Below, one piece after another: positions 11,401 through 58,654 of a stretch of DNA of 64,000 nt. The position numbers and the translations under genes are program-made. How positions within the stretch are numbered: the first letter of the stretch is position 1; each line of letters begins with the position of its first letter. Origin of the DNA: Bifidobacteriaceae bacterium (GTDB lineage: Bacteria; Actinomycetota; Actinomycetes; Actinomycetales; WQXJ01); NCBI GenBank assembly GCA_031281585.1, contig JAITFE010000067.1:22499-86498 (forward strand), given 5' to 3'. The notes below the pieces were generated by a model, which made no database searches, was not told the DNA's origin, and saw only the letters and a list, made by a program, of their open reading frames with translations.

Positions 11401-11436
11401 CACGCAACCCACCATGCCACGCCACAACGCCAACCC

Positions 11437-17000: not shown

Positions 17001-18212
17001 ACCGGCTACACGGTGGTGCTTGCCGGCGCGTTCGGGGTCCCGTTGGTGGTGGCGGCGGCCGCGGACGCGACGTCGGTTGTGTTCACTGAAGTGCCTGCCG
17101 GTTCTTGGACGGCGACGGTGGCGGCCGTGAACTCGGTTGGGTCCTCGGAGCCGTCGTCGGCGTCCAACGCGGTCACGGTCGCCTCGGCCCCAGAAGACCC
17201 AGCAGACCCGGACCCGGACCCTGGCCCTGAGCCGACCGTGCCGGCGGCGCCGGCGGCGCCTAGTGTGGTTGTGGACGGGGATGCGGTGACTGTTAGTTGG
17301 GTCGCTCCGGACGATGGGGGTTCCCCGTTGACCGGGTTCACTGTGAGCCTTCTGGGCGGAGGTAACCCGCTGGTGCGGGATGTGGGCGGGGATGCCACCT
17401 CGGCCCGGTTCGCCGGTGTTGATCCGGGCGCCTACCGTGCCACGGTGATCGCGGTCAACGCCGTCGGCGCGTCGGCGGCTTCCCCCGAATCAGCGCCGGT
17501 GACAATCGAACCCACCGCCTCAGAACCCGGTCCCGGCGAACCCGACCCAGGCGAAACAGACCCTGGTGACCCCGATCCCGGCGAACCCGACCCAGGCGAA
17601 ACAGACCCTGGTGACCCTGGTCCCGGTGAGCCTGATCCCGGCGAGCCCGGTCCCGGTGACCTTGACCCCGGTGAGCCCGGTCCCGGCGAGCGCGATCCTG
17701 GCGACCCTGACCCTGGTGACCCTGACCCTGGTGACCCTGACCCTGGTGACCCTGATCCGGAGGTGGCTCCGGTGCCTGAGGGCGAGTTGACGGATGCGTC
17801 GCGCGGTGGGGTGGACGTGCCGGACGCGGCGGCGCCTGGTGCCCAGATTGTGGTCACGGTGCCCGGGCGCGCAGGCCAGCGGGTGCGGGTGTGGCTGCAT
17901 TCGGCCCCGGTTCTGTTGGGCACGGTCACGTTGGACGCGGATGGCCGGGTGGTGGTGACCATCCCGGCTGGCACGCCGCTAGGCGACCACCGGGTCGTGG
18001 TGCAGGCGCTGGACGGCTCCCTGGTCGGGTGGGACGGCATCGTGATCCGCGCGGCCTCCCATCCGGCCGACCCGGACCCGGGCGACAAGGCGCTTCCCGT
18101 GACGGGCGCGGACGTGAGCTGGCCGCTGATCGGGGCGGTCGGGCTGTTGCTGCTCGGAGCGTTCGCGCGGATCAGGGCGCGCGAACACGGCGCCCGCCCG
18201 GCGAACGCCTGA
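14052..18212 (+). CDS. LPXTG cell-wall-anchored surface protein with four ~215-aa repeat domains, two FN3 domains and a (D/E)PG low-complexity tract
   Basis: Signal peptide (SLLSISALVLGGISFLSSTPAIADEP). The motif W-x-F-x-x-x-GVYC occurs four times (HYWDFTAAGVYC, ASWDFTAPGVYC, PSWVFKSTGVYC, GNWAFTAEGVYC). There are two FN3-like units (VSVTWTAPDDGGSAITGYTV, VTVSWVAPDDGGSPLTGFTV). The C-terminus has LPVTG, a TM helix and a basic tail. Confidence 0.9.
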   Translation: MTPTRLRRDRTSTIRTTSLLSISALVLGGISFLSSTPAIADEPAAAVERAVVDSGWAFLDTTLVDGVPTLGLVRSEHSTTTNAAANPVSYDLDEVVVRIDDSHKTVLPSDDTLAGQSWREFGPAGAEVWETSSTTAFSSSSFPSSDFLVAGYNARGIPKSALSSGNDRVTIEVESFAGPGRWYSGAGSATVNTMSTSRLDSFTEGGTVSVPAANAGRHYWDFTAAGVYCISFTATVTLASATEPVTSQPGTLRIIVGEVENWETAACGSGEEEYVPPEIDLMDPANNWLLPNAHADVAAKLESDGSLGLHLRSGRWWEFANTIVFMSDATEVTIPEPTATRDYTFIAPAGSTVWRLSKAPIDYATWLGFSSEHISDADFERLLTWQLYGVAGIDGGAAPGEFVLGAEESLVAAGGSPIFSTRQGMPQALQMIPAAWAHRHASWDFTAPGVYCLDMGMSGRLPDGTPVSDRQVMTVVVGGDSLNPKSMQTCMQAGITATDTPSANTTLALDTDAPIVLRPESTSRTLTTMLRPTVSDGTLTVDLVVEDQLSGGTAYDPNDVVIPVRAPGDAGQQLGGSRPWDGSAGDRYWALNGAVGRVSLGWDATRLPTSAISGDLGWTMTEIAGGDLILSDNYTSVSHQPVFSSRAGYESYSYPIWPETRVEDPSWVFKSTGVYCVAFEWSGTAAGGASLGPVQKTLTFAVGVDPAKIIPCSWEGGGDQGGGDDDDPDPGEEVPDDWSQLPLSGRHVLDGGHVDIRSVLTASEHTVAVHDDNTQPATLRAVGEVTFSVPPAAEQTVPSAEFAFLGAEGDSVWTLPQTAQAGLVWPGWNLELGSGSTATGVRWVLDEVTGPGGFALYQSLSFGDVSVLLDSDDPENSAFEVSQHGHGNWAFTAEGVYCVDLTVSPVPAADGLDRAVTLLFGVGGVDPERVTPEQCGKTPAQIVGSEPTPDPAVPATPGQPGITTDGSTVSVTWTAPDDGGSAITGYTVVLAGAFGVPLVVAAAADATSVVFTEVPAGSWTATVAAVNSVGSSEPSSASNAVTVASAPEDPADPDPDPGPEPTVPAAPAAPSVVVDGDAVTVSWVAPDDGGSPLTGFTVSLLGGGNPLVRDVGGDATSARFAGVDPGAYRATVIAVNAVGASAASPESAPVTIEPTASEPGPGEPDPGETDPGDPDPGEPDPGETDPGDPGPGEPDPGEPGPGDLDPGEPGPGERDPGDPDPGDPDPGDPDPGDPDPEVAPVPEGELTDASRGGVDVPDAAAPGAQIVVTVPGRAGQRVRVWLHSAPVLLGTVTLDADGRVVVTIPAGTPLGDHRVVVQALDGSLVGWDGIVIRAASHPADPDPGDKALPVTGADVSWPLIGAVGLLLLGAFARIRAREHGARPANA
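17524..17760 (+). repeat. in-frame (D/E)PG-encoding tandem repeat inside the surface-protein gene
   Basis: 9/18-bp units encoding PGEPDPGETDPGDPD... It includes a 45-bp tandem duplication with 40 identical nt (cccggcgaacccgacccaggcgaaacagaccctggtgacc, twice) and four consecutive gaccctggtgaccct units. Confidence 0.9.
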
Positions 18213-18362: not shown

Positions 18363-18632
18363 TTGCGACGCCTCGGCCGCGCGGTCGAATGCCACCGGGC
18401 GCAAGGCGCCGTCACAAACGCCACCGCAGCCGTCTCCAACGCCTTGGACGCCGTCCTCGCGGCCAGCGACACCGGGATCACCGAGGACGCCTCTCGGGTT
18501 GAGAACGCCGCCAGCGACCTAGCCGCCGAACTGGCGGCCACCGCCCTGGGCCGGGCCGGGGGTCAGGCGGTCGGGTCGGTGACCGCGCCCAGGGAGAGCG
18601 GAACCCCCGTCTCCAAATCCACTATCCCGTAG
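18363..18632 (+). CDS. hypothetical small protein (very low confidence)
   Basis: 89 codons with a TTG start, high GC3 by eye and an Ala-rich helical-looking sequence. It overlaps the convergent serpin 3' end by 70 nt, which argues against it. Confidence 0.2.
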   Translation: MRRLGRAVECHRAQGAVTNATAAVSNALDAVLAASDTGITEDASRVENAASDLAAELAATALGRAGGQAVGSVTAPRESGTPVSKSTIP

Positions 18633-19804
18633 ACGAACGGGCGGTCAAACTCGACCGTGAACGGGTTGGCGGCCAAGTGGGCCGATTGAAGCATCGCGAC
18701 CAGGGTGGCGGCGGCCGCTTCGGTGCCGGTCTCCTCCACCTTGATGACACCCTGGTGGAAAGCCTTGTCGACGTGCCCCGCGTTGGGCGCTATCCCGCTG
18801 AAGTCGGCGTTTTCGCCGAAGGCGTCGACCAGGCCCAACGACTGGAGAATCGGGATCAAGTCGACCGGGCCGCTGTCCGCCTCCCACTTCGGCAGCGTGA
18901 TCGTCAACTCGGTGCTGGGCACGCTCTGGGCAAGCCACGCCCCCAACTGCGCGCCGTTCCAGTCCACTGAGCCAAGGCCGCCGCTTGGCATCACCGCGAC
19001 CATCGCCAGGCTCGACGCGGCATAGGGAAGAACCGCGCCCAACGTGCCATCCGGCAGATTGATGTAGGCGGCCCCGTCCGTGGCCTCAAGCACCGCGTGC
19101 ATCAACTGAGCCTGGACCACCTCGCCGGACGGCAAAGTGAAATCGCCCTCGGCCGTCAAGGGCTCGTCGAATGGCTGCGCCCAAGACGCCTTCAGATAGA
19201 GCGCGTTGACCAACGCGATGGTTGTCGCTGGGTCCAATTGGTCCACCAGCCTCGGGATCAGCTCGTTGGTCTTGTCGGAAACCCAAGCATTAATCAGGTC
19301 CACGGTGTCCGGGTCGGCGAACGACACGTCTTTGACCTCCGCGGCGTAGTTTTCACGGGCATTCGCCTCAAACGAAGGGTCCGCCGAAAGCCGATCAGGG
19401 TCGAACCAAAGCGAGTCGGCCACCGTAAGCAACGGGAGGACCGGTCCCCAATCGTCGCCCTCCCGTGTCCCGTTGTACCCGGACCAGGCCGCGATCAGTT
19501 CGGCCGCGCGGGCGTTCGCGCCCGCCCGGTCCATGCCGAGGACCTCGGCGAATTGGCGCTCGGTCTCGCCGCGCGCGCCTTCGCCCGTCATGGCCAGGGC
19601 GAAGAAAAAGGTTAACTCCTGGCAGGTGGTCAAAAGGTAACCGGCAAGCGTCCGCCAATCCGATCGCCTGGGGCCTGCCCATCCGATCCGCCGCGCCGCC
19701 CGGAACGCGCCACAGATCCGGCAGAAGACCCGGCCGTGCCCCGGACGCCGCGCAGATCTCTGGCGAAAGACCCGGCCGTGCCGTTTGGGTGCCCTCGGCG
19801 TCAA
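18563..19804 (-). CDS. serpin family protein, N-terminal region atypical or possibly damaged
   Basis: Reactive-centre-loop hinge KVEETGTEAAAATLV, FDRPFVYGIVD, and ALAMTGEGARGETERQF (helix B). The region where NxxFSPxSI should precede ALAM is shortened (ELTFFFALAM). The first ~50 codons are R-rich with no signal peptide. Confidence 0.75.
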   Translation of the reverse strand: MTPRAPKRHGRVFRQRSARRPGHGRVFCRICGAFRAARRIGWAGPRRSDWRTLAGYLLTTCQELTFFFALAMTGEGARGETERQFAEVLGMDRAGANARAAELIAAWSGYNGTREGDDWGPVLPLLTVADSLWFDPDRLSADPSFEANARENYAAEVKDVSFADPDTVDLINAWVSDKTNELIPRLVDQLDPATTIALVNALYLKASWAQPFDEPLTAEGDFTLPSGEVVQAQLMHAVLEATDGAAYINLPDGTLGAVLPYAASSLAMVAVMPSGGLGSVDWNGAQLGAWLAQSVPSTELTITLPKWEADSGPVDLIPILQSLGLVDAFGENADFSGIAPNAGHVDKAFHQGVIKVEETGTEAAAATLVAMLQSAHLAANPFTVEFDRPFVYGIVDLETGVPLSLGAVTDPTA

Positions 19805-19838
19805 CGATGACCGGGGCGAACGGTTCCGAACGCGGCGG

Positions 19839-21491
19839 TCAGGCCGACGGCGGGGCCAAGGTCGCCGCCCGCCGTTTCTTGGGCGGTCCCTGGCCGAGCC
19901 GTCGGCGTTCGCCGGTCAGCCAAGACCAGGCGGGCCCCGTCAAAGCGAAGATTGCGGGCATGGCGAGGTAGCGGTAGCGGGGCTGGACCTCAATGGCGAG
20001 GTGGACCAGGGCGTAGGCGGACACGAACAGGGCCAGGAAGACGGCCAGGCGGCTCCACCGGCGGTCGCGGTTCAGCGCGAACACGCCGGCGGCGGCCAGC
20101 AACACGGCTGGCAGGAACACGCCGCGCTCCAGGAGCACCGAGTAGTGCGCCACCGTGAACAGGTGCTTGTCCGGAATGGCGTAGTAGTCGGCCACGGTCT
20201 TGTAGCTGGGGCCGTACTGGGGCCAGAACTGGAAGGTCGAGGTGTCCTGCCGCGCCCACAGGAGGGAGGACTGGCGGTCGACAACATGGGGCCAGCTATC
20301 CGGGAGGCGGCGCAAGCTTTGCTTCAACAGTTCCCGTGCGATCTTCCGGGCCTCCGGATTGGGGGTGGGCGCGTAGGCGCCAATGGATCCGTAATCGCTG
20401 CCCTCCGGCGGCTGAAGGCCAAGGACGAACTTCCACTCCGGCAAGTTGTTGGCGCTTCCCTCCGGATTGATCCCGGACGCCTTGACCACCAGGTTGGCGC
20501 CGACCCCCACCAGCGCGTAGACCGCCAGGGCGGCGAGGGCCGCCGCGACCGATAAGCCCAGCGGGCGCCACGACTGCCCGGCGTGCCGCCGCATAACCGG
20601 CCACACCACCGAAGTGGCTGCAAGAGCCACGCACACCACGATCCCGGCGGGGCGGGCCAAGTTGCCCAATTCGAGCACCAAGCCGCCCAAGACCACCAGG
20701 GCCCAACCGGCCCACCTGCCTTTCCGCAGGCCCCTGCCGCTCCCGCCGCTCGCCGAACCGGCGGCGGGCGACCCGCCACGGGTGGTCCGCGACGTGATCC
20801 GGCCAACGCCGCACAACACCAGATACGCGCCGAGTATCAGGAGGAAGGCCGACAAATGGTCGTTGGTTAGGACGTTGGCCTCGAGATACGGCCCTGGGTA
20901 GGCCAAGTACAGGCAGCCGGCGAACAGGCCGGCCACGGCGGACCCGGTCAAGCGGCGCGCGAACAGGTAGACCAGGAAGTTGGTGCCCGCCATGGCCAGG
21001 GCACCCACAATCAGCAAGGGGATGATCGAGCCGCCGAACAGCTTCAGCATCACCGCCTCGTAAATGGCGAACGGCGTCTGATAGGCGAAGAAGTGCCAGT
21101 AGGCCAACTCGGTGAAGCTGTGGTCGCCCCGCAGGATCGCCTCCGCCGCCTGGTACATGGTCAAGAAGTCGGACCGCTGCTGGGTCTTCCAGCGCAGGGC
21201 GAAAACGGCCTTGACCGCGAAGAACATGAGGAAGATGGCGGCTGGCGCCACCCACTTGGGGAGGCGCCAGGAGCGCCAGACGGCCAGCGCCCGGCGTCCC
21301 GCGATCCGCCAGAGGCCCGCCGCCGCCAGGCATGCCGCCCCGGCGCCCAACCACCACAGCCCGAAGTCCGCCCGCGATCCGCGTAGGACGGCCACGGCCG
21401 CGATCGCCGCCAGGACGGCGAACGATCCGGCGGCCACGAGCCAACGCGTCAGCCACCCCAGTTTGGTCTCCGCTGGCCGGGTCGGGCTCAT
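19839..21491 (-). CDS. polytopic membrane protein, GT-C (family 39 / ArnT-PMT-like) glycosyltransferase candidate
   Basis: 550 aa with more than 10 predicted TM helices and a loop-rich C-terminal half. The assignment rests on overall architecture only. Confidence 0.55.
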   Translation of the reverse strand: MSPTRPAETKLGWLTRWLVAAGSFAVLAAIAAVAVLRGSRADFGLWWLGAGAACLAAAGLWRIAGRRALAVWRSWRLPKWVAPAAIFLMFFAVKAVFALRWKTQQRSDFLTMYQAAEAILRGDHSFTELAYWHFFAYQTPFAIYEAVMLKLFGGSIIPLLIVGALAMAGTNFLVYLFARRLTGSAVAGLFAGCLYLAYPGPYLEANVLTNDHLSAFLLILGAYLVLCGVGRITSRTTRGGSPAAGSASGGSGRGLRKGRWAGWALVVLGGLVLELGNLARPAGIVVCVALAATSVVWPVMRRHAGQSWRPLGLSVAAALAALAVYALVGVGANLVVKASGINPEGSANNLPEWKFVLGLQPPEGSDYGSIGAYAPTPNPEARKIARELLKQSLRRLPDSWPHVVDRQSSLLWARQDTSTFQFWPQYGPSYKTVADYYAIPDKHLFTVAHYSVLLERGVFLPAVLLAAAGVFALNRDRRWSRLAVFLALFVSAYALVHLAIEVQPRYRYLAMPAIFALTGPAWSWLTGERRRLGQGPPKKRRAATLAPPSA

Positions 21492-28984: not shown

Positions 28985-29046
28985 CCTGCCGCCGCAATCC
29001 TTACGCCGTCCCGGCGCGGCGGCCGCAGCGCCTTACGGAATCCTTA

Positions 29047-29310
29047 CGCGAAACCGACTGCGGGCGGACGGCGTCGGCTGTCAGACGGGGGTTGGGCGCA
29101 AGGCCACCGCGAAGCCGCCTGCGGCGCGGACGGCATCGGCGGTCAGGCGGGTGCCGGGCGCGGCGTCGCCGTGAAACCGGTTGCGCGGCGGACGGCATCG
29201 GCGGTCAAGCGGAGGTTGGGCGCAAGGCCATCGCGATACCGACTGTGGGGCGACGGCATCGGCTGTCAGGCGAGGGCCAGGCGCAACGTCACCGCGAAAC
29301 CGCTGCCTTC
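29047..29310. repeat. 4-5 tandem copies of a 61-62-bp unit derived from the histidine-kinase 3' end
   Basis: Units start at 29047, 29108, 29170, 29232 and 29293 (cgcgaaaccg... / cgcgaagccg... / cgtgaaaccg... / cgcgataccg... / cgcgaaaccg...). The last unit is the real HK C-terminus (GFAVTLRLALA, stop). Each copy read on the minus strand keeps a ..LR.... codon string and a TGA. Confidence 0.9.
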
Positions 29311-30540
29311 GGCGTTTTCGCAGGTCAGGTGTCCGCCCATGCGGGTCATCAGGTGATCGGCCAGGTACAGGCCCAAGCCCGCCCCGGTCTTCCCGGCACC
29401 CGCCCGTCCCCGGTAGAACTTGCGGGTCAGGAGCGAGAGCTCCTCCGGGTCCGCGCCGGGGCCGCCGTCCGCCAGGGTCAGGACCAGCCAGCCCGCCTCG
29501 ATGCGCGCCGCCGGCCGGATGGGCGGCGCCCCGTACTTGTACGAGTTCGCGACAATGTTCCCCAGCGTTTGCGCCAGGCGCAGCGGGTCCGCTTTGACCA
29601 GGCAGTCCGGGAGCGCGGCGCCGTCCAGCCAACCCAGGTGGTCGGCCTCGGTCAGCATTTCGGCGACCTCCCGGGAGCCGATCTCGCGGGGGTTGACGGG
29701 CAAGACCTCTAGGTCCTGGAGGGCGCCGTCCAGCAGATTCGACGCGAGGGCGTCTATCTGGTCCGCCTTCGCGCCGATCACAGCCAGCCGCTTGGCCGCC
29801 TGTTCGTCACTGGTCTGGGCGGCCATGAGCTCCGCCACCGCTTTGATGGACGCGACCGGCGTCTTCATGTCGTGACCCAGGGAGGCCACCAGTTCCTTGC
29901 GGGCCCGGTCCTGGGCGCGTTCCCGCTCGCGGGCGTCGCTCAGCTCTCCGCGCATCAGGTCGAACGCCTCCGTGAACGCGCCGAAGGCGTTCGCCTTGTC
30001 CATCCTGAGCGGCGCGTCCAAGTCCCCGGCGGCCACCTGGCGGGCGAACGCCCGCATCTCGCGGAAGGGGCGCAACATGGTCCGGTGCGCTCGCCAAAGG
30101 AGGGCCAGGGCGGCGATCTCCAGGGCCGCCGCCAAGGCGACGAACGTCCACCGGAGGGCTTTGGCCTGGGCGGCCAGGGCGGCATCGTCGGCGGTGGCGA
30201 ACAAAACCTGGCCCGCCAAGCGGTCGCCGTCCAGCAGGTTGAGCACCGTGCCCCGGCGGTTGATAGCGGCGGCGACGGTGCCGGGGGCGTCGGGGCCGGT
30301 GGCGTCGAGCAAGCGGCCATCAGGGCCGACCACCGCGTACGGGGGAGTGCCCGGCGGGTTCGGCAACTCGTATCCAGCGGTACCCACGCGGCTGATCTCC
30401 CGTGTCAACTGGGCCGCGACGTCGTTGAGCGCGGGCAGGTCGGGGGTGGGGGGCTGGGGCGGCTTGATGAGCGCCCAGGCCAGCGCGGTCAACGCGGCCA
30501 CGGCCGCAGTCAACGCGACGGCGAGGCGGCGGGCGGTCAT
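29266..30540 (-). CDS. sensor histidine kinase (TM - extracytoplasmic domain - TM - HAMP - HisKA - HATPase)
   Basis: H box LVASLGHDMKTPVASIK and G boxes GGPGADPEEL / GAGLGLYLADHLM. The start was moved to ATG 30540 (MTARRLAVALTAAV...), which overlaps the RR stop as ATGA. Confidence 0.88.
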   Translation of the reverse strand: MTARRLAVALTAAVAALTALAWALIKPPQPPTPDLPALNDVAAQLTREISRVGTAGYELPNPPGTPPYAVVGPDGRLLDATGPDAPGTVAAAINRRGTVLNLLDGDRLAGQVLFATADDAALAAQAKALRWTFVALAAALEIAALALLWRAHRTMLRPFREMRAFARQVAAGDLDAPLRMDKANAFGAFTEAFDLMRGELSDARERERAQDRARKELVASLGHDMKTPVASIKAVAELMAAQTSDEQAAKRLAVIGAKADQIDALASNLLDGALQDLEVLPVNPREIGSREVAEMLTEADHLGWLDGAALPDCLVKADPLRLAQTLGNIVANSYKYGAPPIRPAARIEAGWLVLTLADGGPGADPEELSLLTRKFYRGRAGAGKTGAGLGLYLADHLMTRMGGHLTCENAEGSGFAVTLRLALA

Positions 30541-31415
30541 GCGGCGGCGCGGTCCGGGTCGAGCGCGTAGCCGACCCCCCAGGCGGTGGAGATCAGTTGG
30601 TCGTGGCCGGGGGCGGCGGCCGCCAGCTTGGCGCGCAGGCGGCGGATGTGGACGTTGAGGGCGCCCTCGCCAACCTGGGTGTGGCCCCACGCGGCCACGA
30701 AGAGCTCGCGTTTGGGCACCACCTGGCCGGGCGCGCGGGCCAGGCGCGCGAGCAGGGCGTACTCGATCGCGGTGAGGGCGATGGGGCCGGCCGGGCCGAA
30801 CGCCCGCTCCAGGTCGAATCGGAGTTGGATTTGGCCGCACCGGAACTCTTGCGACGCGTGGGCGTGGGCGGGGTCTGCGTGGGTCCGGTCTGCGTTGGCG
30901 AGGTCTGCGTTGGCGAACTCCATGGGGGAGAGGTCTGCGTTGGCGAACTCCATGGGGGAGAGGTCGGTGGGGGCGAGGTCTGGGCCGACGAGGTCTCCGG
31001 CCTGGCGGGCCGCTGGCCCCGCCGCGGGTGCCGCGCTCTGGCGGCTTCGGCGCAGCACCGCCTGGACCTTGGCGTGCAGGACCGCCAGGGAATAGGGCTT
31101 GGCGATGTAGTCGTCCCCGCCCACGCCGAGGCCCAACAGGATGTCGTCATCGCCGCCGCGGGCGGAGATGAACAGGATGGGGATGTCGGTCTCGCGGCGC
31201 AGCCGCCGGCACAGCGCGAACCCCGACTCGCCCTCCAAATTGATGTCCAGCAGGATCACGCCGACGTCGTTGTTGGCCAAGAGGGTCAGGGCGCCCGCCG
31301 AGTCCGGCGCCCAAGCGGCCGGGGTTCCCAACATGGTGAAGTACTCGACGGTGGCCTGCGAAAGCGCGGCCTCGTCGTCAATGATCAGGCAGTCAACGCG
31401 CTGGCGGCGGCTCAT
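30537..31415 (-). CDS. OmpR/PhoB-family response regulator with an unusually long repeat-containing linker
   Basis: Receiver domain CLIIDDE...VILLDINLEGESGF...FISARG. The wHTH domain carries LNVHIRRLRAKL...ISTAWGVGYAL. The start was moved to ATG 31415 (MSRRQRVD...). Confidence 0.88.
   Translation of the reverse strand: MSRRQRVDCLIIDDEAALSQATVEYFTMLGTPAAWAPDSAGALTLLANNDVGVILLDINLEGESGFALCRRLRRETDIPILFISARGGDDDILLGLGVGGDDYIAKPYSLAVLHAKVQAVLRRSRQSAAPAAGPAARQAGDLVGPDLAPTDLSPMEFANADLSPMEFANADLANADRTHADPAHAHASQEFRCGQIQLRFDLERAFGPAGPIALTAIEYALLARLARAPGQVVPKRELFVAAWGHTQVGEGALNVHIRRLRAKLAAAAPGHDQLISTAWGVGYALDPDRAAA
30900..30959. repeat. perfect 30-bp tandem duplication inside the response-regulator linker
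   Basis: gaggtctgcgttggcgaactccatggggga occurs twice in tandem and encodes DLSPMEFANA twice on the minus strand. It is flanked by shorter degenerate ggtctgcgt units. Confidence 0.95.
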
Positions 31416-31558
31416 AGGCGGTGTTCCGGACGCGACATGGCGGGCGGGCACGGTTCGCGCGCGGCGCTCGTCGCGGGCGACCCCCGACCGACGCGCGAGA
31501 CGCGGGCGTAGATCGTGGATTCCATCGGCTCAGACACGCGCCACCGCCTAACTTGGGA

Positions 31559-31866
31559 GTCGGGTAGTCCCAGACTAGCGCCGCCGAAAGCGAGTGTAGG
31601 TTCTCATCTGAAGCGGGACGGCGAATGTAGGTTCCTGTCTGGTCTGAACCGGCGAGTGTAGGGTTCCGTCTGGCTTAGCCGCCCGAGTGTACGATCCGAT
31701 CTGCGCGGCCTGCCCGAGCGTAGGATCCCATCTACTCCAAAGTGGACCGCGAGCCTCTGAACAGGCGCTACGCAAATGAGACCAAGACAGGAATCTACAT
31801 TCGACTCCTTGCGCCAGATGGAATCCGACAGTCGACGGCGAAGACCAGACAAGAACCTACGCTCGG
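31559..31866. repeat. phased array of a ~21-bp motif: six direct copies (31-bp period) facing three inverted copies (31-bp period)
   Basis: Motif cGAGyGTAGGwTCCnrTCTGG. GTAG cores on the plus strand are at 31564, 31596, 31627, 31658, 31689 and 31720. Reverse-complement copies have CTAC/CGAC cores at 31795, 31826 and 31857. Confidence 0.9.
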
Positions 31867-32295
31867 CTCCAAAAAGGCTCCAAAAGGCGCACAAAGGGCG
31901 ACATTCGAGGCCGAGCGCACCGCTGGGTCAACCCTTTCGTCTGGGCGGGCGTGAGGCCGCCAAGAAGCGACACCAGGTAGTGGTCGGCGATGAGCGCTTC
32001 GAGCACGTCCCCGAAGCGGGGATCGTCGCCGCACCGTTCCCGAATGGCTTTCACGGTGAGGCTCGCGGGTGCCGTCGCCGTGGTCGAGGATCTTGAAGGC
32101 CAGGTCCTTGTCGTCGGCGTAGTAAGGATCGATTCGGGTGACGAACTCGGTCACCGCGTGGCTCTGGTCGCGGTCGTCAACGAAAGCGTCAAAGGTGTGA
32201 CCGACCTCTTGCGCCGTGATGCGGTCGCGGCCCACGAAGTTGGCCGGGTCGAGTTCGGATCCGGGGTTGGGCTTGATGGGCCGCAGGCCGTCCAT
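31857..32295 (-). pseudogene. hypothetical gene, apparently frameshifted or truncated
   Basis: GGAGG lies 5 nt before ATG 32295 (MDGLRPIKPNPGSELDPANFVGRDR...KILDHGDG). Protein-like sequence continues in another frame from about 32050 (TVKAIRERCGDDPRFGDVLEALIADHYLVSLLGG...) and runs into the inverted repeat copies. No family recognised. Confidence 0.35.
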
Positions 32296-32332
32296 GGCTG
32301 CCTCCTGGCGCATGCCGATGCGAGGGCGAGAT

Positions 32333-32380
32333 TTATACTCGCCAGTTCGAGTACAAATAGACTCGAAATGGCGAGTATAA
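32333..32380. promoter_or_regulatory. 48-bp inverted repeat (20-bp arms, 1 mismatch, 8-nt loop) in an AT-rich promoter region
   Basis: ttatactcgccagttcgagt - acaaatag - actcgaaatggcgagtataa. A third half-site, ggcgagattta, lies at 32325. It contains a TATAAA -10-like element for the minus-strand gene starting at 32295. Confidence 0.7.
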
Positions 32381-32433
32381 CCAGCGATCCGATGAACGCC
32401 CTGGTCAAGTGGGTATAGGGACGCCTCCGCCGT

Positions 32434-33816
32434 CTAATCGCCAGGCATCAGTTCCCTGATCGTCTCGCGCTCCCCGAAGGTGTAGACCGCGAACAGCCGG
32501 CTCTCTGTCCAGCGGTACCAGACCGAGTCCGCTCCGGCCAGGGCCGGGCTGGTGTCGATCGACCAGAGTTCCTCCAGGCCGTCAAGGGCGTAGGCGGTCA
32601 GTTCACGGCGGTCGCCGTCCCAGGGCTGGAGGTAGACGGTGGCGGATCCGGCGCCGACAAAGCTGAAGCTTGGGGGAAGGGTCATGCGGGCCAGTTCCCG
32701 TCCTGAGCGCAGCTTGCGTGTCGTCATGTGCTGGCCGCGCAGGATCAGGGCGGCGTCCCCGCGAACCGCGCCGATTCTGCCGGCGCCCGTCCACAGGGCG
32801 GTGCCCGTCGCCAGGTCGCGGGCCCACAGCAGGCCGGATCGCTCCCGCACTGTGGGTCCCACCAGGAGGGTGCGTCCGCGGGTCTCAAGCGCTAGGTCCC
32901 CCTGCGCGCTGGCCGCCGCGGATTCCCACAACGGAGCGCCGGTCGCCGGATCGACCAGCATGACGGGGCCGTCCTCGCCCACTCGGCGCAGGACCAGATC
33001 CCCAGGCCCGTGGACTAGGGAGAAAGTGACTCCGGGGTTGAACGGGCCGACGCGCAGTTCGGTGGGTTGGCCGGTGTCCACGTCGACGACTTGGTCGTTC
33101 GGCGCGGTCCAATAGGTGCCCGTCCACGAGTTGTGGGTTCTGGTCGACAGCGAGTCGGAATAGGCGTGGGCCCGCCACAGCGGACGGCCGAGGTCCGTGG
33201 CGTCATAAGCGGCCTGATGCTCTTCGCCCAGCGTGCTGGACCAGACCAACACCACGCCGGTGCCCAAGCCCACCATTTCGCCGCCGATGTCCGACGTCTT
33301 TGACAGAACCTCTCCCGAGGCCCCGATCGTCGCGGCCGGATAGCGGAAACCGCCGTCATCGATCTTGACGGCGTACACCGCGATCAACCCGTCGGGGTCC
33401 AGCAGCACCTCTGGGATGTACGCGTCGGAGAATTCCTCGCCCAAGGACTTGTCGACGTCGATCAGCCATGAGGGTTCGCCGGAGTCCAGGTCGAACGCCA
33501 CGAGCCTGGCGGGCGGGTCAGCCTGGGGACTGCCAGGCTCGTCGGCCAACTGCACCGCCACGTCGCTCGTGGCGACCACCAGCCCGGTCTGTTCGCCCAG
33601 GAACCCCCGAAACTCGACGGCGGCAAAGTCGCCGCCGGCCAGCTCCGCCAAGTCGATCGCGTCGCCCCACACGGGCTGGGCCGCGAAGTCCGGCAGTTGG
33701 CCGGGCGTGTAGTTGTCGCTCTTGTGCGGCAGCGACGGCCATACGAAGACGGCCGCCACCGCCAAAATGGCCAGGGCGGAACCCGGTGGACGATGCCGCC
33801 ACACCGCTCCCAGCAC
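32434..33816 (-). CDS. membrane-anchored PQQ-like beta-propeller repeat protein (paralog 1)
   Basis: 460 aa with an N-terminal TM (ALAILAVAAVFVW) and recurring D..tG...W strand motifs (DLDSGEPSW, DPATGAPLW, DLATGTALW). Confidence 0.75.
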   Translation of the reverse strand: MLGAVWRHRPPGSALAILAVAAVFVWPSLPHKSDNYTPGQLPDFAAQPVWGDAIDLAELAGGDFAAVEFRGFLGEQTGLVVATSDVAVQLADEPGSPQADPPARLVAFDLDSGEPSWLIDVDKSLGEEFSDAYIPEVLLDPDGLIAVYAVKIDDGGFRYPAATIGASGEVLSKTSDIGGEMVGLGTGVVLVWSSTLGEEHQAAYDATDLGRPLWRAHAYSDSLSTRTHNSWTGTYWTAPNDQVVDVDTGQPTELRVGPFNPGVTFSLVHGPGDLVLRRVGEDGPVMLVDPATGAPLWESAAASAQGDLALETRGRTLLVGPTVRERSGLLWARDLATGTALWTGAGRIGAVRGDAALILRGQHMTTRKLRSGRELARMTLPPSFSFVGAGSATVYLQPWDGDRRELTAYALDGLEELWSIDTSPALAGADSVWYRWTESRLFAVYTFGERETIRELMPGD

Positions 33817-33937
33817 CGACTCACCTCCCGTCCGGCCCGTTCAGGCGCACGGACCGGTCTTCGACAATACCGGCCTCCACCGCCCGGCGCCCCGCTGAAG
33901 TTGCGGATACCGGAACGGAGAAACCTCCCAAGCGGAC

Positions 33938-35305
33938 CTATCCGGCCGGAACCAGTTGGCGGATGACATGGTCGTGATCGGAGGAGAACTCCGCGAACAG
34001 CCGGTTGTCGGTCCAGCGGTACCAGATCCAATGGTCGCTGGCTTGGACGGCGGAGTCGAGCGACCAGAGTTTGTTCAGGCCGTCAAGGGAGTAGGCGGCA
34101 AGTTCGCGGCGGTCGTCCCCAATCACTTGGATGTACACCGTCTTGGCACCCACGCCGACCAGGCGGTAGCGGCCGGTTATGCGGGTGTGGGCGAACTGCC
34201 GCCCGGTGCGCAGGTCTCGGGTGGCTATGCTCGAACCGTTGAGGATCAGGGCGGTTCGGCCGCGAACCGCACCCACAGTCCCGGTGGCGGTCCACAAGCC
34301 CCGGCCGGTGGCCGCGTCCCGGGCCCAGATCGTGTCCGCCGCGTCGGCCGTTGTCGGGCCTGTCAGCAAAGTGTCCTCCCGGACCTCGAGCCGCTGATCG
34401 GGGTTGAGATCCTCCACGGGCGACCCCCACAAAGGCTCGCCGGTTTGCGGATCGACCCGCATGGCCTTGCCGTCTCGCCCCTCCCACCGCAAGACCAGGT
34501 CGTAGGGGCCGTTGGCCAGGAGATGGGCCCCGCCCGCAAGGTTGCGGCGCAGCGCAGTCGGTTGGCCGGTGTCCACGCTGATCACGCGGGCTTCCGGCGC
34601 GGTCCAGTAGGTCCCGGTCCACAGGTTGAAAGTGGTGGTGTCAAGCGAGTCCGGAAGGGCGTACGCCTCCCAAACCGGCTGGCTCAGGTCTTCGGCCCGG
34701 TAGGCGGATTGGCGCTCATATCCGGGCGTGTTGTCCCAGATCAACAGCACTCCGGTGCCCAACCCGAGCAGTTGGCCGCCAATGTCGTCCGTCACCGACA
34801 TGACCTCGCCCTGGGCCCCGATCGTCGCGGTCGGATGGGACTGGCCGCCGCCGGACTCGCCGAAGGCGGAGACGGCGACCATGCCCCTGGGGTCCACCAT
34901 GAAGTCGCCGAACGTGGCCGAGGCGAATCCTTGGCTGAGCGATCCGTCTATGTCGACCTGCCACCGGCGTTCGCCGGAGTCCGGGTCGAACCCGGCGACG
35001 GCGGCGATGGGCGCGTCGGCGCGAGGGGGTTCGCCTTCTTCAAGCGCCCAGTCGTTCTGGGCCAACACCAGGCCGGTGTGGTCGCCCAGGAAGCCTTTGA
35101 AGTCCACGGAGTCGAATTCGCCGTCCACCAACCCCGCCAGGTCGATGGCGGCGCCCCAGGTCGGCTTGGCCGGCAGGTCTGGCGGCTGCCGGGGCCCGCT
35201 CGCGTCGACTTGGGGCGGGTGCGGGGGGAGGAGCACAATCGCGGCGGCGATCAGCAAGAACAGCGACGCCCCCGGTGGACGATGCCGCCACAACGATCCC
35301 AGCAC
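33938..35305 (-). CDS. membrane-anchored PQQ-like beta-propeller repeat protein (paralog 2)
   Basis: 455 aa, colinear with the neighbour along its full length (roughly half the residues identical by eye). Both share the N-terminus ML.GxxWRHRPPG. Confidence 0.75.
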   Translation of the reverse strand: MLGSLWRHRPPGASLFLLIAAAIVLLPPHPPQVDASGPRQPPDLPAKPTWGAAIDLAGLVDGEFDSVDFKGFLGDHTGLVLAQNDWALEEGEPPRADAPIAAVAGFDPDSGERRWQVDIDGSLSQGFASATFGDFMVDPRGMVAVSAFGESGGGQSHPTATIGAQGEVMSVTDDIGGQLLGLGTGVLLIWDNTPGYERQSAYRAEDLSQPVWEAYALPDSLDTTTFNLWTGTYWTAPEARVISVDTGQPTALRRNLAGGAHLLANGPYDLVLRWEGRDGKAMRVDPQTGEPLWGSPVEDLNPDQRLEVREDTLLTGPTTADAADTIWARDAATGRGLWTATGTVGAVRGRTALILNGSSIATRDLRTGRQFAHTRITGRYRLVGVGAKTVYIQVIGDDRRELAAYSLDGLNKLWSLDSAVQASDHWIWYRWTDNRLFAEFSSDHDHVIRQLVPAG

Positions 35306-43743: not shown

Positions 43744-46653
43744 TCAAGCCCTCCGGGCGAGCGGCGCCAGCACCTCCAGGATGTGGCGGTAGGTGCGGCC
43801 GGTGGCGCGGCTGATGCCGAGTTCGCAGGTGCGGTTTGCGCTGACGTAGGCGTCGAAGCGGCCGCCTGGTCCAGGGCTGGCGGGGGTCGCCTGGCGGGCC
43901 CTTTCGGCCTCCGCCGCCCAGACCGCTTGCGCCTCGGGGCGGGTCGCGGCGGCGGTCAACTCCGGGTGGAGCATGCCCCGGTCGCCGGCGAAGGCGCAGC
44001 AACCCCAGGTCAGCGGCACGAACACGGTTTGGGCGGCCTGCCCGGCCAAGGCGATCAAGTCCTCCTTGGCCCCGAGTTGCACGGTTGAACAGGTCGGATG
44101 CACGGCCACCGCGCCGAGTTTGCCGTCCACCGTCAGGCGCGGCATGATCGAGCCGCGCGCGAAGGTCACGGCGTCCACAACCCGCAGATCTGCGGCCTGT
44201 GCCGCCCGCCTCTCGTCAAGATGGTCCCGCAGGCCGGTCAGGCCGTGCGTGCAGGAGGCCGCGTCGCTCACGACGGGCAGTTCTCCCCCGGCGGTCGCCT
44301 CCCAAAGGGCGTCGAAGGTGAGCCGGGCCATGGTGGCCGAGCCCTTGGTCAAACCCTTGGATTCCCAAACCGTGCCGCAGCAGAGAGCTCTGATCGCGGA
44401 CGGAACGGTCAACCTGAGGCCCGCCTCGCGGCACAGGCGGTCCAGCGCCTCGCCCACGCCTGGGCCGTCCGGCGCCGGGGCGAAAAGCGAGTTGATGCAG
44501 GTGGCGAAGTATACGGCGGCGACCGGGGCGCGGGGGTCGCCCAGCACTCCCCCGGCGGCGCGGCGCGGTCCGGGACCCGGCAGGTCGGGCCCGGCCTGCG
44601 GAACCCAATCCTCGGGCAGCACGGATCTGGCTGCCTTGGTGACTGCGGGAAGGACGGGCGCGGGAAGCAATTGGGCGGCGCCGAGCGCTGTTCGCAGCGT
44701 GGCGACCGCGCCGCCCCAATGGTTCGCGGCCCACTCCCCCGCCGCCTGCACCGCGGCGGGATGCCTGGCCGCCCGTTGGGCCTTCATGAGCTTCCCGGTG
44801 TCGATCCCGACCGGGCAGGCGATCACGCAGAGGGAGTCCGCGGCGCAGGTGTCGACGGCGCTGTAGGCGAAGTCCTTCTCTGCCGCGCGCCTGGCGGACG
44901 GGCCCAGGCGGGCAATGGTCCGCATCGCTGCGATGCGTCCCCTGGGCGTGAGGGTGAGGTTCCTGGCTGGGCACGTCGGCTCGCAGTAGCCGCATTCGAC
45001 GCAACGGTCGAAGGCTTGGTCCACTTGGGGAATGGCCTTGATGTGCTCCATGTGTTCGCGCGGGTTCGCGGTGATTAGGACCCCCGGGGACAGCATGTCG
45101 GTTGGGTCAAACAAACGTTTGACTTCCCTCATGATTTGATATAGCTCCTTGCCGAACTGCCTTTCGACGAAGGGCGCCATGATGCGGCCGGTGCCGTGTT
45201 CGGCCTTAAGCGTTCCGCGGTTGCCCAGCACCAAGTCCACCAGGCCGTCCGTGAACCGGTCCAGGTTCCTGAGCTGGTCGGACCGGTCCAAGTCGAGGGT
45301 CATGAGGAAGTGGAGGTTGCCGTCCTTGGCGTGGCCGAAGGTCACCGAGTCGGGGAATCCGTGCTGGTCAAAGAGCTGTCTGAGCCCCGCGCAGGTCTCG
45401 GATAGAGCCGGCACCGGAACCGCGATGTCCTCGATCAGGGCGGTGGTGCCCGGAGGGCGGGCGCCGGCCACCGCTGTGTAGAGGCCGTTGCGCGAGGACC
45501 AGAGGCGGTCGCGCTCGGCCGGGTCGCGGGTGAACGCGGCGGGGGCATCCAGCCTCAGGTCTGGCAGAACGGCTGTAAGGGCCTTTACCCTTTCGTTCAG
45601 CGTTTCCTCGTCTTCGGCGCGGACTTCGACGATCAGGGCGGTCTGGGTCGGCTTGGTCGCCTGCGGCACGGGGTCCGGGCCTTTCGCGGCGGCCCTGGCC
45701 GCCCTGATGGACGCCGGATCCATGAGTTCCAGGGTCTTGGCTCCCGCCGCGCGGAGGGTTTCGATGGAGTCGGTCGCGTCTTCAAGGCGCGCGAACACCA
45801 TCAGGGCGGTCGCCGCGTACGGCTCCACGGGGATGGTGCGGAGCGTGACCGAGGAGATGAACCCCAGCGTGCCCTCGGAGCCGACCATCAGGTGTTCCAG
45901 GATCTCGATCGGCTCCGCGAAGTCCGCGAACGAGTTCAGGCCGTAGCCCATGGTGTTCTTCATCGAGTACTGGGCCGCGATGCGGCGGAGCGAGTCCTGG
46001 TTGGAGCGCACGCGGTCGCGCAGTTTGGCCAACCCCGCGCAGAGTGCGGGCTCCAGTTCGGCGAGTTTCGCGGCGGCGTCCGGCGAGGTTGTGTCTATGG
46101 TGGTCCCGGACGGAAGCGTGACGGTGAGCCCTTGGATTGTGCTGTAGGTGTTGAACTCGGTGCCGCAGGCCATGCCGGAGGAATTGTTGGCCACCACTCC
46201 CCCGATGGTCGCCGCGACGCCGCTGGCCGGGTCGGGGCCCAGCTGCCGTCCGTGGCGGGCCAACGCGGCGTTGACCGCCCTGACCGTGAGGCCGGGGCCG
46301 CAACGCACCTGGTCTTTGTGCTGATCAATGTGAAGGTCGGTGAACCCGCGCCTGACGTCCACCATCACCCCGGCGCCGCCGGCCTGGCCGGAGAGCGACG
46401 TCCCGGCGGAGCGGAACGTCAAAGCAACCCGCTCGGCGCAGGCCAGGCGCATCGCCGCCGCCACGTCCTCAACGGAATCCGCCGTCACGACTCCGCGCGG
46501 CACCAGCAGGTAATGCGACGCGTCGTGGGCGGCCGTGGCAACGTCTAGGGGTTGGCTCCGCAACCGCGCCCCGAACCGCTCCTGCCAGGCCGCGCCCAGG
46601 GGCTCGGCGCCACGTGACGCCACGTTGCGAGGTGCTGATGACACGGATGCCAC
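43744..46653 (-). CDS. FAD-binding (PCMH/GlcD-like) and Fe-S/CCG-domain fusion oxidoreductase (D-lactate dehydrogenase-like)
   Basis: FAD domain (RSAGTSLSGQ), 4Fe-4S motif CVECGYCEPTCP and C-terminal Cys-rich CCG-like domains. The start was moved to GTG 46653 because the longer ORF translates decayed CRISPR repeats (MPFIEA...). Confidence 0.8.
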   Translation of the reverse strand: MASVSSAPRNVASRGAEPLGAAWQERFGARLRSQPLDVATAAHDASHYLLVPRGVVTADSVEDVAAAMRLACAERVALTFRSAGTSLSGQAGGAGVMVDVRRGFTDLHIDQHKDQVRCGPGLTVRAVNAALARHGRQLGPDPASGVAATIGGVVANNSSGMACGTEFNTYSTIQGLTVTLPSGTTIDTTSPDAAAKLAELEPALCAGLAKLRDRVRSNQDSLRRIAAQYSMKNTMGYGLNSFADFAEPIEILEHLMVGSEGTLGFISSVTLRTIPVEPYAATALMVFARLEDATDSIETLRAAGAKTLELMDPASIRAARAAAKGPDPVPQATKPTQTALIVEVRAEDEETLNERVKALTAVLPDLRLDAPAAFTRDPAERDRLWSSRNGLYTAVAGARPPGTTALIEDIAVPVPALSETCAGLRQLFDQHGFPDSVTFGHAKDGNLHFLMTLDLDRSDQLRNLDRFTDGLVDLVLGNRGTLKAEHGTGRIMAPFVERQFGKELYQIMREVKRLFDPTDMLSPGVLITANPREHMEHIKAIPQVDQAFDRCVECGYCEPTCPARNLTLTPRGRIAAMRTIARLGPSARRAAEKDFAYSAVDTCAADSLCVIACPVGIDTGKLMKAQRAARHPAAVQAAGEWAANHWGGAVATLRTALGAAQLLPAPVLPAVTKAARSVLPEDWVPQAGPDLPGPGPRRAAGGVLGDPRAPVAAVYFATCINSLFAPAPDGPGVGEALDRLCREAGLRLTVPSAIRALCCGTVWESKGLTKGSATMARLTFDALWEATAGGELPVVSDAASCTHGLTGLRDHLDERRAAQAADLRVVDAVTFARGSIMPRLTVDGKLGAVAVHPTCSTVQLGAKEDLIALAGQAAQTVFVPLTWGCCAFAGDRGMLHPELTAAATRPEAQAVWAAEAERARQATPASPGPGGRFDAYVSANRTCELGISRATGRTYRHILEVLAPLARRA

Positions 46654-46857
46654 GATACAGGCAGGCGCTGCCCAGGGCAGCGGGCCCTTGGCTACTTCAC
46701 GTGGGACCCGAAGCAGGACCCTCGGCGGAATGGGCCAGGCACAACCCGATGGCGGTTGGGGCAATCGGTCCCGGACTCCGTGACCGGCGGTGCTCGTGAG
46801 CCGAGTCTGAGCCTGCCGTAGGCAATCAAGTGCCGAAAAGCGGCCTGGTTTCAGCCC

Positions 46858-49800: not shown

Positions 49801-50955
49801 CTGAAGAGCGGCGCAATGTCCCAGCTCAGAGACGTGCTGGGACCGGTTTCCCGCCTCAATGAAGGGCGCCGCTGAAGAGCGGCGCAATGAGGCCGGAATC
49901 ACCGAGGTTCGTGCGCAGACCCGCCTCAATGAAGGGCGCCGCTGAAGAGCGGCGCCATCCACTCAAGTTTGACCGGCGCCGAGATGAGGCCCGGCCTCAA
50001 TGAAGGGCGCCGCTGAAGAGCGGCGCAATCCGTGGCGGTCCGGGCTTGCTGGAGCCGCTCCAGGTGCCTCAATGAAGGGCGCCGCTGAAGAGCGGCGCAA
50101 TACGATCACCGCCAGGCGGTTCGGAAAACACTGGACGCCTCAATGAAGGGCGCCGCTGAAGAGCGGCGCAATAACTCGATCCCCTCTCGCGACGACTACG
50201 GGGTCCTGCCTCAATGAAGGGCGCCGCTGAAGAGCGGCGCAATCTTGCCCTCGACCAGGGCCTCCGCCAGTTCGTTGTCGCCTCAATGAAGGGCGCCGCT
50301 GAAGAGCGGCGCAATCCCGACTGACGGGGCACGACGATAACAATTTCTCTGCCTCAATGAAGGGCGCCGCTGAAGAGCGGCGCAATATCGCCACCCGCGC
50401 CCCACAGGCGGGAGATTTGGGGCCTCAATGAAGGGCGCCGCTGAAGAGCGGCGCAATTCGAGCGGGTGAGGCCCGGCGGCGTGACGGGGGGAGCCTCAAT
50501 GAAGGGCGCCGCTGAAGAGCGGCGCAATGGCGCTGGGTTCATCCATGGTGACGACTGTATCATCGCCTCAATGAAGGGCGCCGCTGAAGAGCGGCGCAAT
50601 CCGCGACCAGCGCTTTTAACCGGACCGAAGCCCGAGCCTCAATGAAGGGCGCCGCTGAAGAGCGGCGCAATACGGCACCTTTGATCCCCTCACCCTAGTG
50701 AGTTGCCTCAATGAAGGGCGCCGCTGAAGAGCGGCGCAATCAATCCCCACCATCAGAACATTTATTCCTTGCCCTTGCCTCAATGAAGGGCGCCGCTGAA
50801 GAGCGGCGCAATGTGTTCCCGCCACGGGTGTCCCGCCGGGATGAGCGCGCCTCAATGAAGGGCGCCGCTGAAGAGCGGCGCAATTCTAGGGAGGTGTGGC
50901 CGACGTTTTCCCAGTCCGCGCCTCAATGAAGGGCGCCGCTGAAGAGCGGCGCAAT
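46858..50955 (-). CRISPR. CRISPR array, about 57 repeats of 36 nt (plus one more decayed unit), spacers 33-39 nt
   Basis: Plus-strand repeat is gcctcaatgaagggcgccgctgaagagcggcgcaat. Transcribed (minus) sense is ATTGCGCCGCTCTTCAGCGGCGCCCTTCATTGAGGC, with stem GCGCCGCT/AGCGGCGC. I located every unit from 46931 to 50920 at 69-75-bp spacing. Decay is seen at 47417, 47077, 46931 and 46858, and an 18-nt spacer remnant lies at 47114-47131. Confidence 0.97.
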
Positions 50956-51147
50956 AGTGCCTAGATTACACCGGTTCGGACCTGCGGAGGTGCGCTGGCG
51001 CGCGAGCGCTGTCGGAGAATCGGTGGCGAGGATGGGGCCTGGATGGCCGGTGGGCCTGATCTAGGGCTGTGGCCAGGGCAGATGTCCCGCGAGCGCCCGA
51101 GCACGGAGGCCGTGTCATCGGAGCGCTCGCGGGGTGCCAGCGGCCTG
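50956..51147 (-). promoter_or_regulatory. CRISPR leader
   Basis: 192-bp non-coding gap between cas2 and the first, perfectly conserved repeat. Repeat decay increases away from it. Confidence 0.7.
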
Positions 51148-51450
51148 CTAGAGGATGATCGCCTCATTGGGTGTGACTGGCCGGTCCCGGCCGATGAAAG
51201 AGAACTTGGATTCTTCCAGTGACGAGACTGGCCCCAGATCGCAGAGAAGCACAGAATCCTCTTCGAGATTGATTTCCGCTCCGACGGCAACCTTGAGCCT
51301 GACAAGAGCCGCTGGCTTGGCGTCAACGACAAACACCGAATACTGAACGCGGTCGCCGTAGGTCTGAAGGCACTTGGCGACCCGTGTGCGTCGTTTGTCC
51401 TCCGGAATGTCATAGGCGATCAGATACCTTCTGGCGGTGTCGGGTATCAT
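51148..51450 (-). CDS. cas2: CRISPR-associated endoribonuclease Cas2
   Basis: 100 aa (RYLIAYDIPEDKRRTRVAKCLQTYGDRVQYSVF). It has a 4-nt overlap with cas4/cas1. Confidence 0.92.
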   Translation of the reverse strand: MIPDTARRYLIAYDIPEDKRRTRVAKCLQTYGDRVQYSVFVVDAKPAALVRLKVAVGAEINLEEDSVLLCDLGPVSSLEESKFSFIGRDRPVTPNEAIIL

Positions 51451-58652: not shown

Positions 58653-58654
58653 GA

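Follow-up and report, generated by a model that had tools for sequence, protein, structure and literature searches.

A strictly phased array of 21-bp motifs in an actinobacterial chromosome, a candidate binding platform for the protein family of a decayed neighboring gene

In its annotated record, the incA locus of P1 contains nine 19-bp RepA iterons, six running one way and then three inverted. Their start-to-start distances are 31, 30, 31, 31, 31, 40, 41, and 31 bp, and the locus measures 285 bp overall. In P1, incA titrates and pairs the initiator. STAND-type activators bind several short asymmetric boxes, direct or inverted, upstream of their target promoters (MalT boxes, SARP/AfsR heptamer repeats), and the binding is cooperative, by an oligomerizing ATPase-regulator. 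In archaea, ORB and mini-ORB elements are repeated asymmetric inverted boxes adjoining orc1/cdc6 genes (PMC3528665; PMC1904270). Here we analyzed an array of 21-nucleotide (nt) motifs at positions 31591-31865 of a 64-kb stretch of actinobacterial DNA (68% GC), referred to below as the window. The source is a metagenome-assembled genome (MAG) labeled Bifidobacteriaceae, and the analysis covers one locus in this one MAG. The motif copies are candidate binding sites in what appears to be a phased multi-site array attached to an uncharacterized protein family.

The motif has the consensus CGAGTGTAGGWTCCNRTCTGG and is present in eight strong copies. Five of them lie on the plus strand (31591-31735) and face three inverted copies (31783-31865). 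Inside each arm the start-to-start spacing is exactly 31 bp, and the phase is unbroken. We made a position weight matrix (PWM) from the array copies and scored each site with it. The direct copies are CGAGTGTAGGTTCTCATCTGA (copy 1, 31591-31611, 31.7 bits), CGAATGTAGGTTCCTGTCTGG (copy 2, 31622-31642, 34.1 bits), CGAGTGTAGGGTTCCGTCTGG (copy 3, 31653-31673, 29.0 bits), CGAGTGTACGATCCGATCTGC (copy 4, 31684-31704, 27.4 bits), and CGAGCGTAGGATCCCATCTAC (copy 5, 31715-31735, 29.3 bits). The inverted copies, on the minus strand, are CGAATGTAGATTCCTGTCTTG (copy 6, 31783-31803, 29.6 bits), CGACTGTCGGATTCCATCTGG (copy 7, 31814-31834, 26.8 bits), and CGAGCGTAGGTTCTTGTCTGG (copy 8, 31845-31865, 31.3 bits). 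The 47-bp gap between the arms (31736-31782) is moderately A+T-rich and contains neither a motif copy (best PWM score, -9.4 bits) nor a DnaA box. Across the 64 kb, the runner-up to the array copies (26.8-34.1 bits) reached 9.8 bits. A search of the whole window with a 19-nt consensus, allowing up to three mismatches, returned eight matches, all in the array, compared to 0.20 expected from shuffles. The array is real. An assembly artifact, considered in view of a period near k-mer size, was rejected because the copies differ among themselves by 20-25%.

These positions agree with the GTAG/GTAC cores at 31596, 31627, 31658, 31689, and 31720 and the CTAC/CGAC cores at 31795, 31826, and 31857 that had been listed in an earlier note made from the sequence alone. 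That note had counted six direct against three inverted copies with a 31-bp period. The period and the inverted set were confirmed, and the direct set was reduced to five: the supposed sixth copy (GTAG at 31564; 31559-31580, plus strand) has the GTAG core only and scores below -7.9 bits, which is background level. A further related copy claimed at 31515-31528 has only GGATTCCATC in common with copy 7 and, with a score of -5 bits, does not rise above background either. We detected a partial, out-of-phase fourth inverted copy, CGAATGTCGCCCTTTGTGCGC, at 31887-31907 (minus strand; 2.2 bits, >99.9th percentile). Its start lies 42 bp, not 31 bp, from that of copy 8. Abutting the outermost inverted copy are three A-tracts, CTCCAAAAAGG, CTCCAAAAGG, and CGCACAAAGG (31867-31900), which follow each other with a period of 10-11 bp and probably form an intrinsic DNA bend. 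Phased A-tracts are unusual for a 68% GC genome. The array is a noncoding stretch located 175 bp upstream of the start codon of a response regulator gene. As noted before, no open reading frame (ORF) accounts for it: coding signal was absent across the array in every frame. Its GC content (0.56-0.62) is low for the window. Copy 8 overlaps the stop codon of the last open frame of a neighboring pseudogene.

The layout closely resembles that of P1 incA. Both consist of asymmetric 19-21-bp sites with a 31-bp period (about three helical turns), in which five or six direct sites face three inverted ones over about 275-285 bp, and both sit immediately 3' of a gene. Unlike incA, the array has no Rep gene, origin, or plasmid or phage context, and its motif sequence is unrelated. 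The arms are also further apart, with a center-to-center distance of 68 bp versus 40 bp in incA, and the array is chromosomal, next to a dead AAA+/winged-helix gene. By analogy, the likeness would bear on how the array can work, with monomer sites three turns apart in two opposed sets by which the binder is titrated and paired, and not on membership in the iteron class. The resemblance to the STAND activators lies in the multiple asymmetric boxes of both orientations and in the gene module described below, which includes an AAA_16/22-MarR-TPR protein. In contrast to their box arrays, the 21-bp unit and the 31-bp period are much larger, there are eight sites, and a LuxR/OmpR-type DNA-binding domain is missing.

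To compare conserved and variable positions, the array was cut into 31-nt units, and the 21 motif columns and 10 spacer columns were compared pairwise. Pairwise identity was 0.73 in the motif columns and 0.257 in the spacer columns, the random expectation for unrelated sequence with this base composition being 0.263. This contrast was matched by 1 of 5000 column permutations. Invariant motif positions are C1 G2 A3, G6 T7, T12, and T17 C18 T19, with A8 G9 G10 near-invariant, and no unit has lost or gained a base. A 62-bp tandem repeat with 4.2 copies, located 2.5 kb away in the same operon, was used as a neutral control, and its differences are evenly spread. The adjoining pseudogene has picked up a large deletion, a frameshift, and a truncation. 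Because the motif columns are kept while the spacers are random, the units have constant length, the control repeat diverges evenly, and the pseudogene has accumulated indels, the array seems to be selected for both motif and spacing. This points to constraint rather than to a neutral minisatellite. The control repeat itself (29047-29306; 74-81% matches) lies between the histidine kinase and ABC ATPase genes. Its unit corresponds to the last ~45 coding bases of the kinase plus ~17 downstream bases and is single copy in orthologous loci. The period is twice that of the array, and the sequence is unrelated to it.

The small broken gene with a palindromic operator that had been noticed next to the array proved to be the decayed remnant of a ~400-amino-acid (aa) AAA+/winged-helix gene (31968-32295, minus strand), and its palindrome was located at 32331-32380. 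The merged product of its two broken frames gave nothing in a word-based homologue search, Pfam, or NCBIfam. A full HMMER scan assigned it to a rare family of ~385-417-aa proteins with 53 matches. The remnant keeps residues equivalent to 26-50, 302-351, and 375-392 of P0121, an intact member of the family. At its N-terminus the RPIxPNPGSELDPANFVGR motif is retained, and so are about 90 residues of the C-terminal part. An internal deletion has removed ~250-270 aa (the ATPase core), a frameshift lies near 32075, and the 3' end is truncated after DHYLV, with loss of the last ~25 residues. Intact family members always precede a translationally coupled gene for a 561-801-aa AAA_16/22-MarR_2(-TPR) protein. 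P0121 was modeled from a 29-sequence alignment (pLDDT 89.9, pTM 0.89), and the model contains an AAA+ domain, a lid, and a C-terminal winged helix. Its best PDB match was the Pyrococcus Walker ATPase 2qen (E 1e-12), followed by archaeal Orc/Cdc6 proteins including the origin-bound 2qby, and then by yeast ORC/Cdc6, RuvB, and RFC. Judged by this modeled fold, the family is an Orc/Cdc6-like AAA+ ATPase with a C-terminal winged helix, partnered by a STAND-type AAA_16/22-MarR-TPR protein. PADLOC, plasmid tblastn, and a literature search gave no lead to its function.

Two minor observations concern this family. Its N-terminal motif RPIxPNPGSELDP has a weak second match inside the second PQQ-like gene of the window (protein P0135; 35019-34957, minus strand; E 0.04). 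A 2599-aa database protein contains the motif 13 times, so the motif may be a short module separable from its surroundings. The locus with the closest intact ATPase module (L021) encodes, at its positions 1-877, a large FAD-oxidase/4Fe-4S protein whose architecture matches that of the protein encoded at 43744-46950 of the window. This suggests that the two genomes are related, and the gene order differs.

The array and the decayed gene are linked by a rare octamer. The palindrome is the operator/promoter of the remnant gene, and its four CGAGTMYA half-sites form two nested inverted pairs. Its homologue in L021 is the P0121 promoter, and the two have the block GAGTATAAATCTC in common. The head of the array motif is CGAGTNTA, the same element as in the operator, which lies 500 bp from the array. 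This octamer was observed seven times in the 64 kb versus 1.37 expected: three times in the array, three times in the operator, and once elsewhere. Six of the seven sites fall within the 900 bp from 31500 to 32400 (Poisson P about 7e-14). Copies 1, 3, and 4 match the octamer exactly, and copies 2, 5, 6, and 8 deviate from it at one position. With the relaxed pattern CGA[GA]TNTA, the array has five sites, the operator has three, and the rest of the window has one. In 77 kb of related actinobacterial loci, the octamer is present four times, each time in the intergenic region upstream of one of the two closest intact family members (in L021 and L024), and one of the L024 sites is an exact CGAGTGTA. 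More distant members have GACGTAYA repeats at the equivalent upstream place. Such a pattern is what a co-evolving autoregulatory operator would look like. We estimate the chance that an unrelated 21-bp motif contains the octamer at ~3e-4, a figure that belongs to a post hoc comparison. Since the rare octamer is common to the array and the family promoters, the most likely occupant of the array is the protein that recognizes these operators.

We therefore tentatively propose that the array is a phased platform for the DNA-binding protein of the family to which the decayed neighbor belongs. Judging by the sequence, the binder would most likely be the regulator of this neighboring gene, and neither the response regulator nearby nor a transposase or a replication protein of plasmid type. 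The shared octamer was absent from the earlier note as a candidate explanation. The note's general reading, two convergent sets of same-face sites for a sequence-specific protein, is supported by the conserved motif, the random spacers, and the unbroken phase, and none of its three specific versions (transposon ends, plasmid iteron or centromere, platform for an OmpR-type regulator) was confirmed. From the spacing of the invariant positions, each 21-bp unit would bind one protein unit, which would contact blocks about 10 bp apart. With a period of about three helical turns, the units of one arm would lie nearly on the same DNA face, and the opposed arms (five and three sites) could allow pairing, looping, or wrapping into one higher-order complex. 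The binder would recognize the CGAGTNTA head and presumably is the winged-helix product of the module, supplied by an intact paralogue elsewhere in the genome. We thus infer that the module's own product binds the operator, that the same protein occupies the array, and that this has a regulatory consequence. The array would then be a multi-site sink or assembly platform for a winged-helix protein. A complex between the module promoter and the response regulator operon, between which no terminator was detected, could work by titrating the regulator, by stopping read-through, or by providing a platform for activation from upstream. Being situated just upstream of that operon, the array could also modulate or insulate it. 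If this proposal is true, the palindromic operator and the phased array would be the first DNA target for a rare, uncharacterized Orc/Cdc6-like plus STAND-MarR-TPR module. The P1-type layout of six sites facing three at 31 bp would recur on a chromosome without a Rep protein, which would point to a geometry of general use wherever monomeric DNA binders are to be assembled or paired.

Several points weigh against this proposal. The operator has only the 8-nt head in common with the array motif, and the conserved tail GGWTCC..TCTGG is without counterpart in any operator site. The half-site CGAGTNTA is present in both places. The array units occur singly, with 31-bp phasing and a 13-nt tail that operator sites lack, and they do not form palindromic pairs over the -10 region of a gene. 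Intact modules in L021, L024, L026, and L030 are without such an array within the DNA covered, so the module does not generally come with one. Since the gene next to the array is dead and the STAND partner is absent, the binder must be encoded elsewhere. In the operators the octamer overlaps a -10-like TATAAA, and part of its conservation there may reflect promoter function and not a protein site. Finally, the array was connected with the operator only in hindsight.

Among the alternatives, we considered an iteron array of the P1 incA type, either left over from a plasmid or phage-plasmid that had integrated or acting as a decoy on the chromosome, where it would titrate or handcuff a Rep initiator encoded elsewhere. 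A plasmid iteron or centromere had also been suggested in the earlier note. Unit size, period, arm layout, and overall length all match incA, and the array has the 17-22-bp asymmetric phased repeats in direct and inverted sets that characterize iterons. The asymmetric sites with conserved blocks about 10 bp apart are as expected for a two-domain monomer, bent DNA may lie alongside the array, and the locally low GC and the decay suggest foreign DNA. However, Pfam scans of the window ORFs revealed no Rep, Par, or relaxase gene in the 64 kb, and the neighbors are housekeeping genes. Hallmarks of an origin were missing as well: no DnaA box (up to one mismatch) was found in 31300-32500, and no unwinding element was found at the array, where the most A+T-rich 30-mer (60% A+T) lies over copy 6 and not in the gap between the arms. 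A blastn search with the array against plasmids and phages gave no match. We also scanned IMG/VR, GTDB species representatives, and JGI metagenomes for a strict two-unit pattern that covers all six adjacent pairs of the array. There was no match in IMG/VR, and the other two collections yielded nothing but unrelated tandem repeats with a 31-bp period, in part eukaryote-like, so that no second array and no other copy of the motif was found in these viral, GTDB-representative, and metagenome collections; the scans are exact, would miss diverged arrays or arrays with other spacing, and were run on collections from which the source contig is absent. An iteron origin would, moreover, leave the octamer shared with the neighboring operator unexplained. 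Nothing in these results supports mobility or a replicon, an absence that is not proof given that the scans were exact and that the source genome was covered by the window alone, and we consider the iteron reading unlikely.

The second alternative, likewise raised before, is an autoregulatory platform for the adjoining OmpR-family response regulator (30537-31415, minus strand). This gene is the first of an operon that continues with a histidine kinase, an ABC ATPase, and an FtsX permease gene, lies downstream of the array, and is conserved in the related MAGs L006, L007, L018, L019, and L020. The array units would then be weak, compressed tandem boxes for eight or nine dimers upstream of the operon. 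In favor of this, the array ends 175 bp from the regulator's start codon on the side of the gene's upstream region, as OmpR/PhoB operators lie upstream of their targets, and it shows a gapped resemblance to GTAAGGATTCC, the window's own box at the ABC-transporter promoter. GTAGGWTCC and GTCGGATTCC are at edit distance 2 from this box, 6 of the 26 edit-distance-2 clusters in the window fall in the array region, and the half-site-like GTAGGN and GTCTGG are 10 bp apart.

An independent test was provided by the conserved box GTAAGGATTccGTAAGG ... GTAAGGATT with its GTAAGGATy repeats at the ABC-transporter promoter, in the intergenic region between the kinase and ABC genes (28994-29055, minus strand). 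In four orthologous loci, the same promoter position is occupied by two or three G(T/C)(A/C)AGGA(T/A)y units with an 11-bp period (L006, 8062-8110; L007, 8051-8100; L018, 8392-8425; L019, 8062-8095). This form is as expected for an OmpR-family site, and the conserved box is a good candidate for the binding site of the regulator. In three loci, a further GTAAG(G/C) is found about 46 bp downstream of the box. A half-site PWM was built only from the ABC promoters of these four other loci, and it was validated by the window, in which the two ABC-promoter sites ranked first and second of 128,000 positions. Among the top 200 positions of this PWM, the array region accounts for two versus 1.2 expected, and the better of the two is in a spacer. 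The regulator's box consists of two or three direct repeats at an 11-bp period, whereas the array units fail its PWM, and the invariant CGA and TCT of the array are without counterpart in it. The weak resemblance sits in the tail of the array motif and requires indels inside the half-site. No array lies upstream of the orthologous operons of L006, L007, L019, and L020. After the PWM test the idea was down-weighted, and a platform for the response regulator now appears improbable. In L018, four or five copies of GACGAGACTCGCAGGACCnCTAC with a 23-bp period (5723-5835) lie between an AAA_14/DUF4143 ATPase gene and the orthologous response regulator gene. As a second example, it shows repeats that neighbor an ATPase gene in front of an operon of this type. 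This different repeat also fails the PWM of the regulator's box and was rejected as a parallel because it shares neither the array motif nor that box.

A more far-reaching version of the proposed protein platform takes up the archaeal comparison. As in ORB loci, inverted boxes lie directly beside a gene whose AAA+ product has a winged helix at its C-terminus. The array and the family might therefore be a bacterial counterpart of the ORB/Orc1-Cdc6 or plasmid iteron/Rep systems, in which monomers of the Orc/Cdc6-like protein on the opposed, helically phased arms, together with the STAND-MarR-TPR partner, would build a nucleoprotein machine for loading, pairing, or silencing, and not just a simple operator complex. 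Unlike in the archaeal case, the host is bacterial, the family is closer to the uncharacterized PAB2304 Walker ATPase (2qen) than to true Orc1, no A+T-rich unwinding element separates the arms, the gene is decayed, and its intact relatives are without such an array. We regard this version as rather remote, together with a related one in which the orphaned array would survive as a chromosomal decoy that titrates an Orc/Cdc6-like protein arriving on an incoming element.

A nonfunctional minisatellite, generated by replication slippage and inverted duplication, could be expected in a duplication-prone locus. In addition to the 62-bp repeat, the same operon contains a 30-bp repeat of 2.6 copies inside the response regulator gene, and the block of copies 2-3 is 79% complementary to that of copies 8-7 over 53 nt, spacer included. 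Against this, the spacers are fully randomized while the motif columns are still 73% identical and no unit has changed in length. Neutral decay would have spread the changes evenly, as in the control repeat, and the pseudogene shows that indels do accumulate in the region. Such an origin is very unlikely. At 30862-30982, the 30-bp repeat in the response regulator gene has 2.2-2.6 copies with identities of up to 100%. It is translated into DLSPMEFANA repeats within the linker that joins the receiver domain to the DNA-binding domain. This linker is unusually long, and the orthologues are 40-50 residues shorter.

Hardly credible, too, is the internally deleted, nonautonomous transposon with arms as subterminal transposase-binding arrays of the Tn7/Mu/Tn402 type that the earlier note had listed: the mutually inverted arms, the pairing of the outermost copies 1 and 8, and a TGT/CGT near the motif's outer end would suit it, but the array is single copy in the window and absent from the scans described above, its flanks GCGAG and CTCGG belong to the inverted repeat and are not a direct target-site duplication, and instead of a DDE transposase with an AAA+ regulator, the sole transposase trace is a DDE_Tnp_1 fragment 20 kb away, from a family without multi-site ends. 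To our knowledge, a strict 31-bp period over five sites is also not typical of multi-site transposon ends. The DDE_Tnp_1 trace is a 160-aa ORF at 10983-11465 (minus strand) with a partial transposase domain and is probably an insertion sequence fragment.

Other readings were rejected as well. A CRISPR was dismissed on the 21-bp repeat and 10-bp spacers, which are unrelated to the real CRISPR repeat of the window, and a replication fork trap was dismissed on the cumulative GC skew, which does not turn at the array. In RNA folding, both strands of the array beat shuffled sequences (z -4.3 and -5.5). This folding merely reflects the inverted motif copies, with helices broken at every spacer, and an Rfam scan of 30000-34000 showed nothing relevant.

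The window is chromosomal, with genes for a class II aminoacyl-tRNA synthetase, Dus, dGTPase, DnaG, and a serpin, a MoxR/VWA cluster, and a CRISPR-Cas locus. The response regulator operon, on the minus strand, lies left of the array, and on the right the small broken gene and its palindrome are followed by two PQQ-like beta-propeller genes. The CRISPR array (47276-50956) contains the 36-bp repeat GCCTCAATGAAGGGCGCCGCTGAAGAGCGGCGCAAT about 50 times, once every ~71 bp. The cas genes (51447-59890) encode a Cas4-Cas1 fusion (51447-53063), Cas3 (54118-57096), a Cas_GSU0053 protein (58655-59890), and two unassigned ORFs, a set that looks like type I-U/I-G. The GC content of this region (0.62-0.65) is below that of the rest of the window. 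The serpin-family protease inhibitor gene (18563-19915, minus strand) belongs to a family uncommon in bacteria and adjoins a gene for a 1450-aa fibronectin-type-III protein with 15/45-bp coding repeats (17523-17758).

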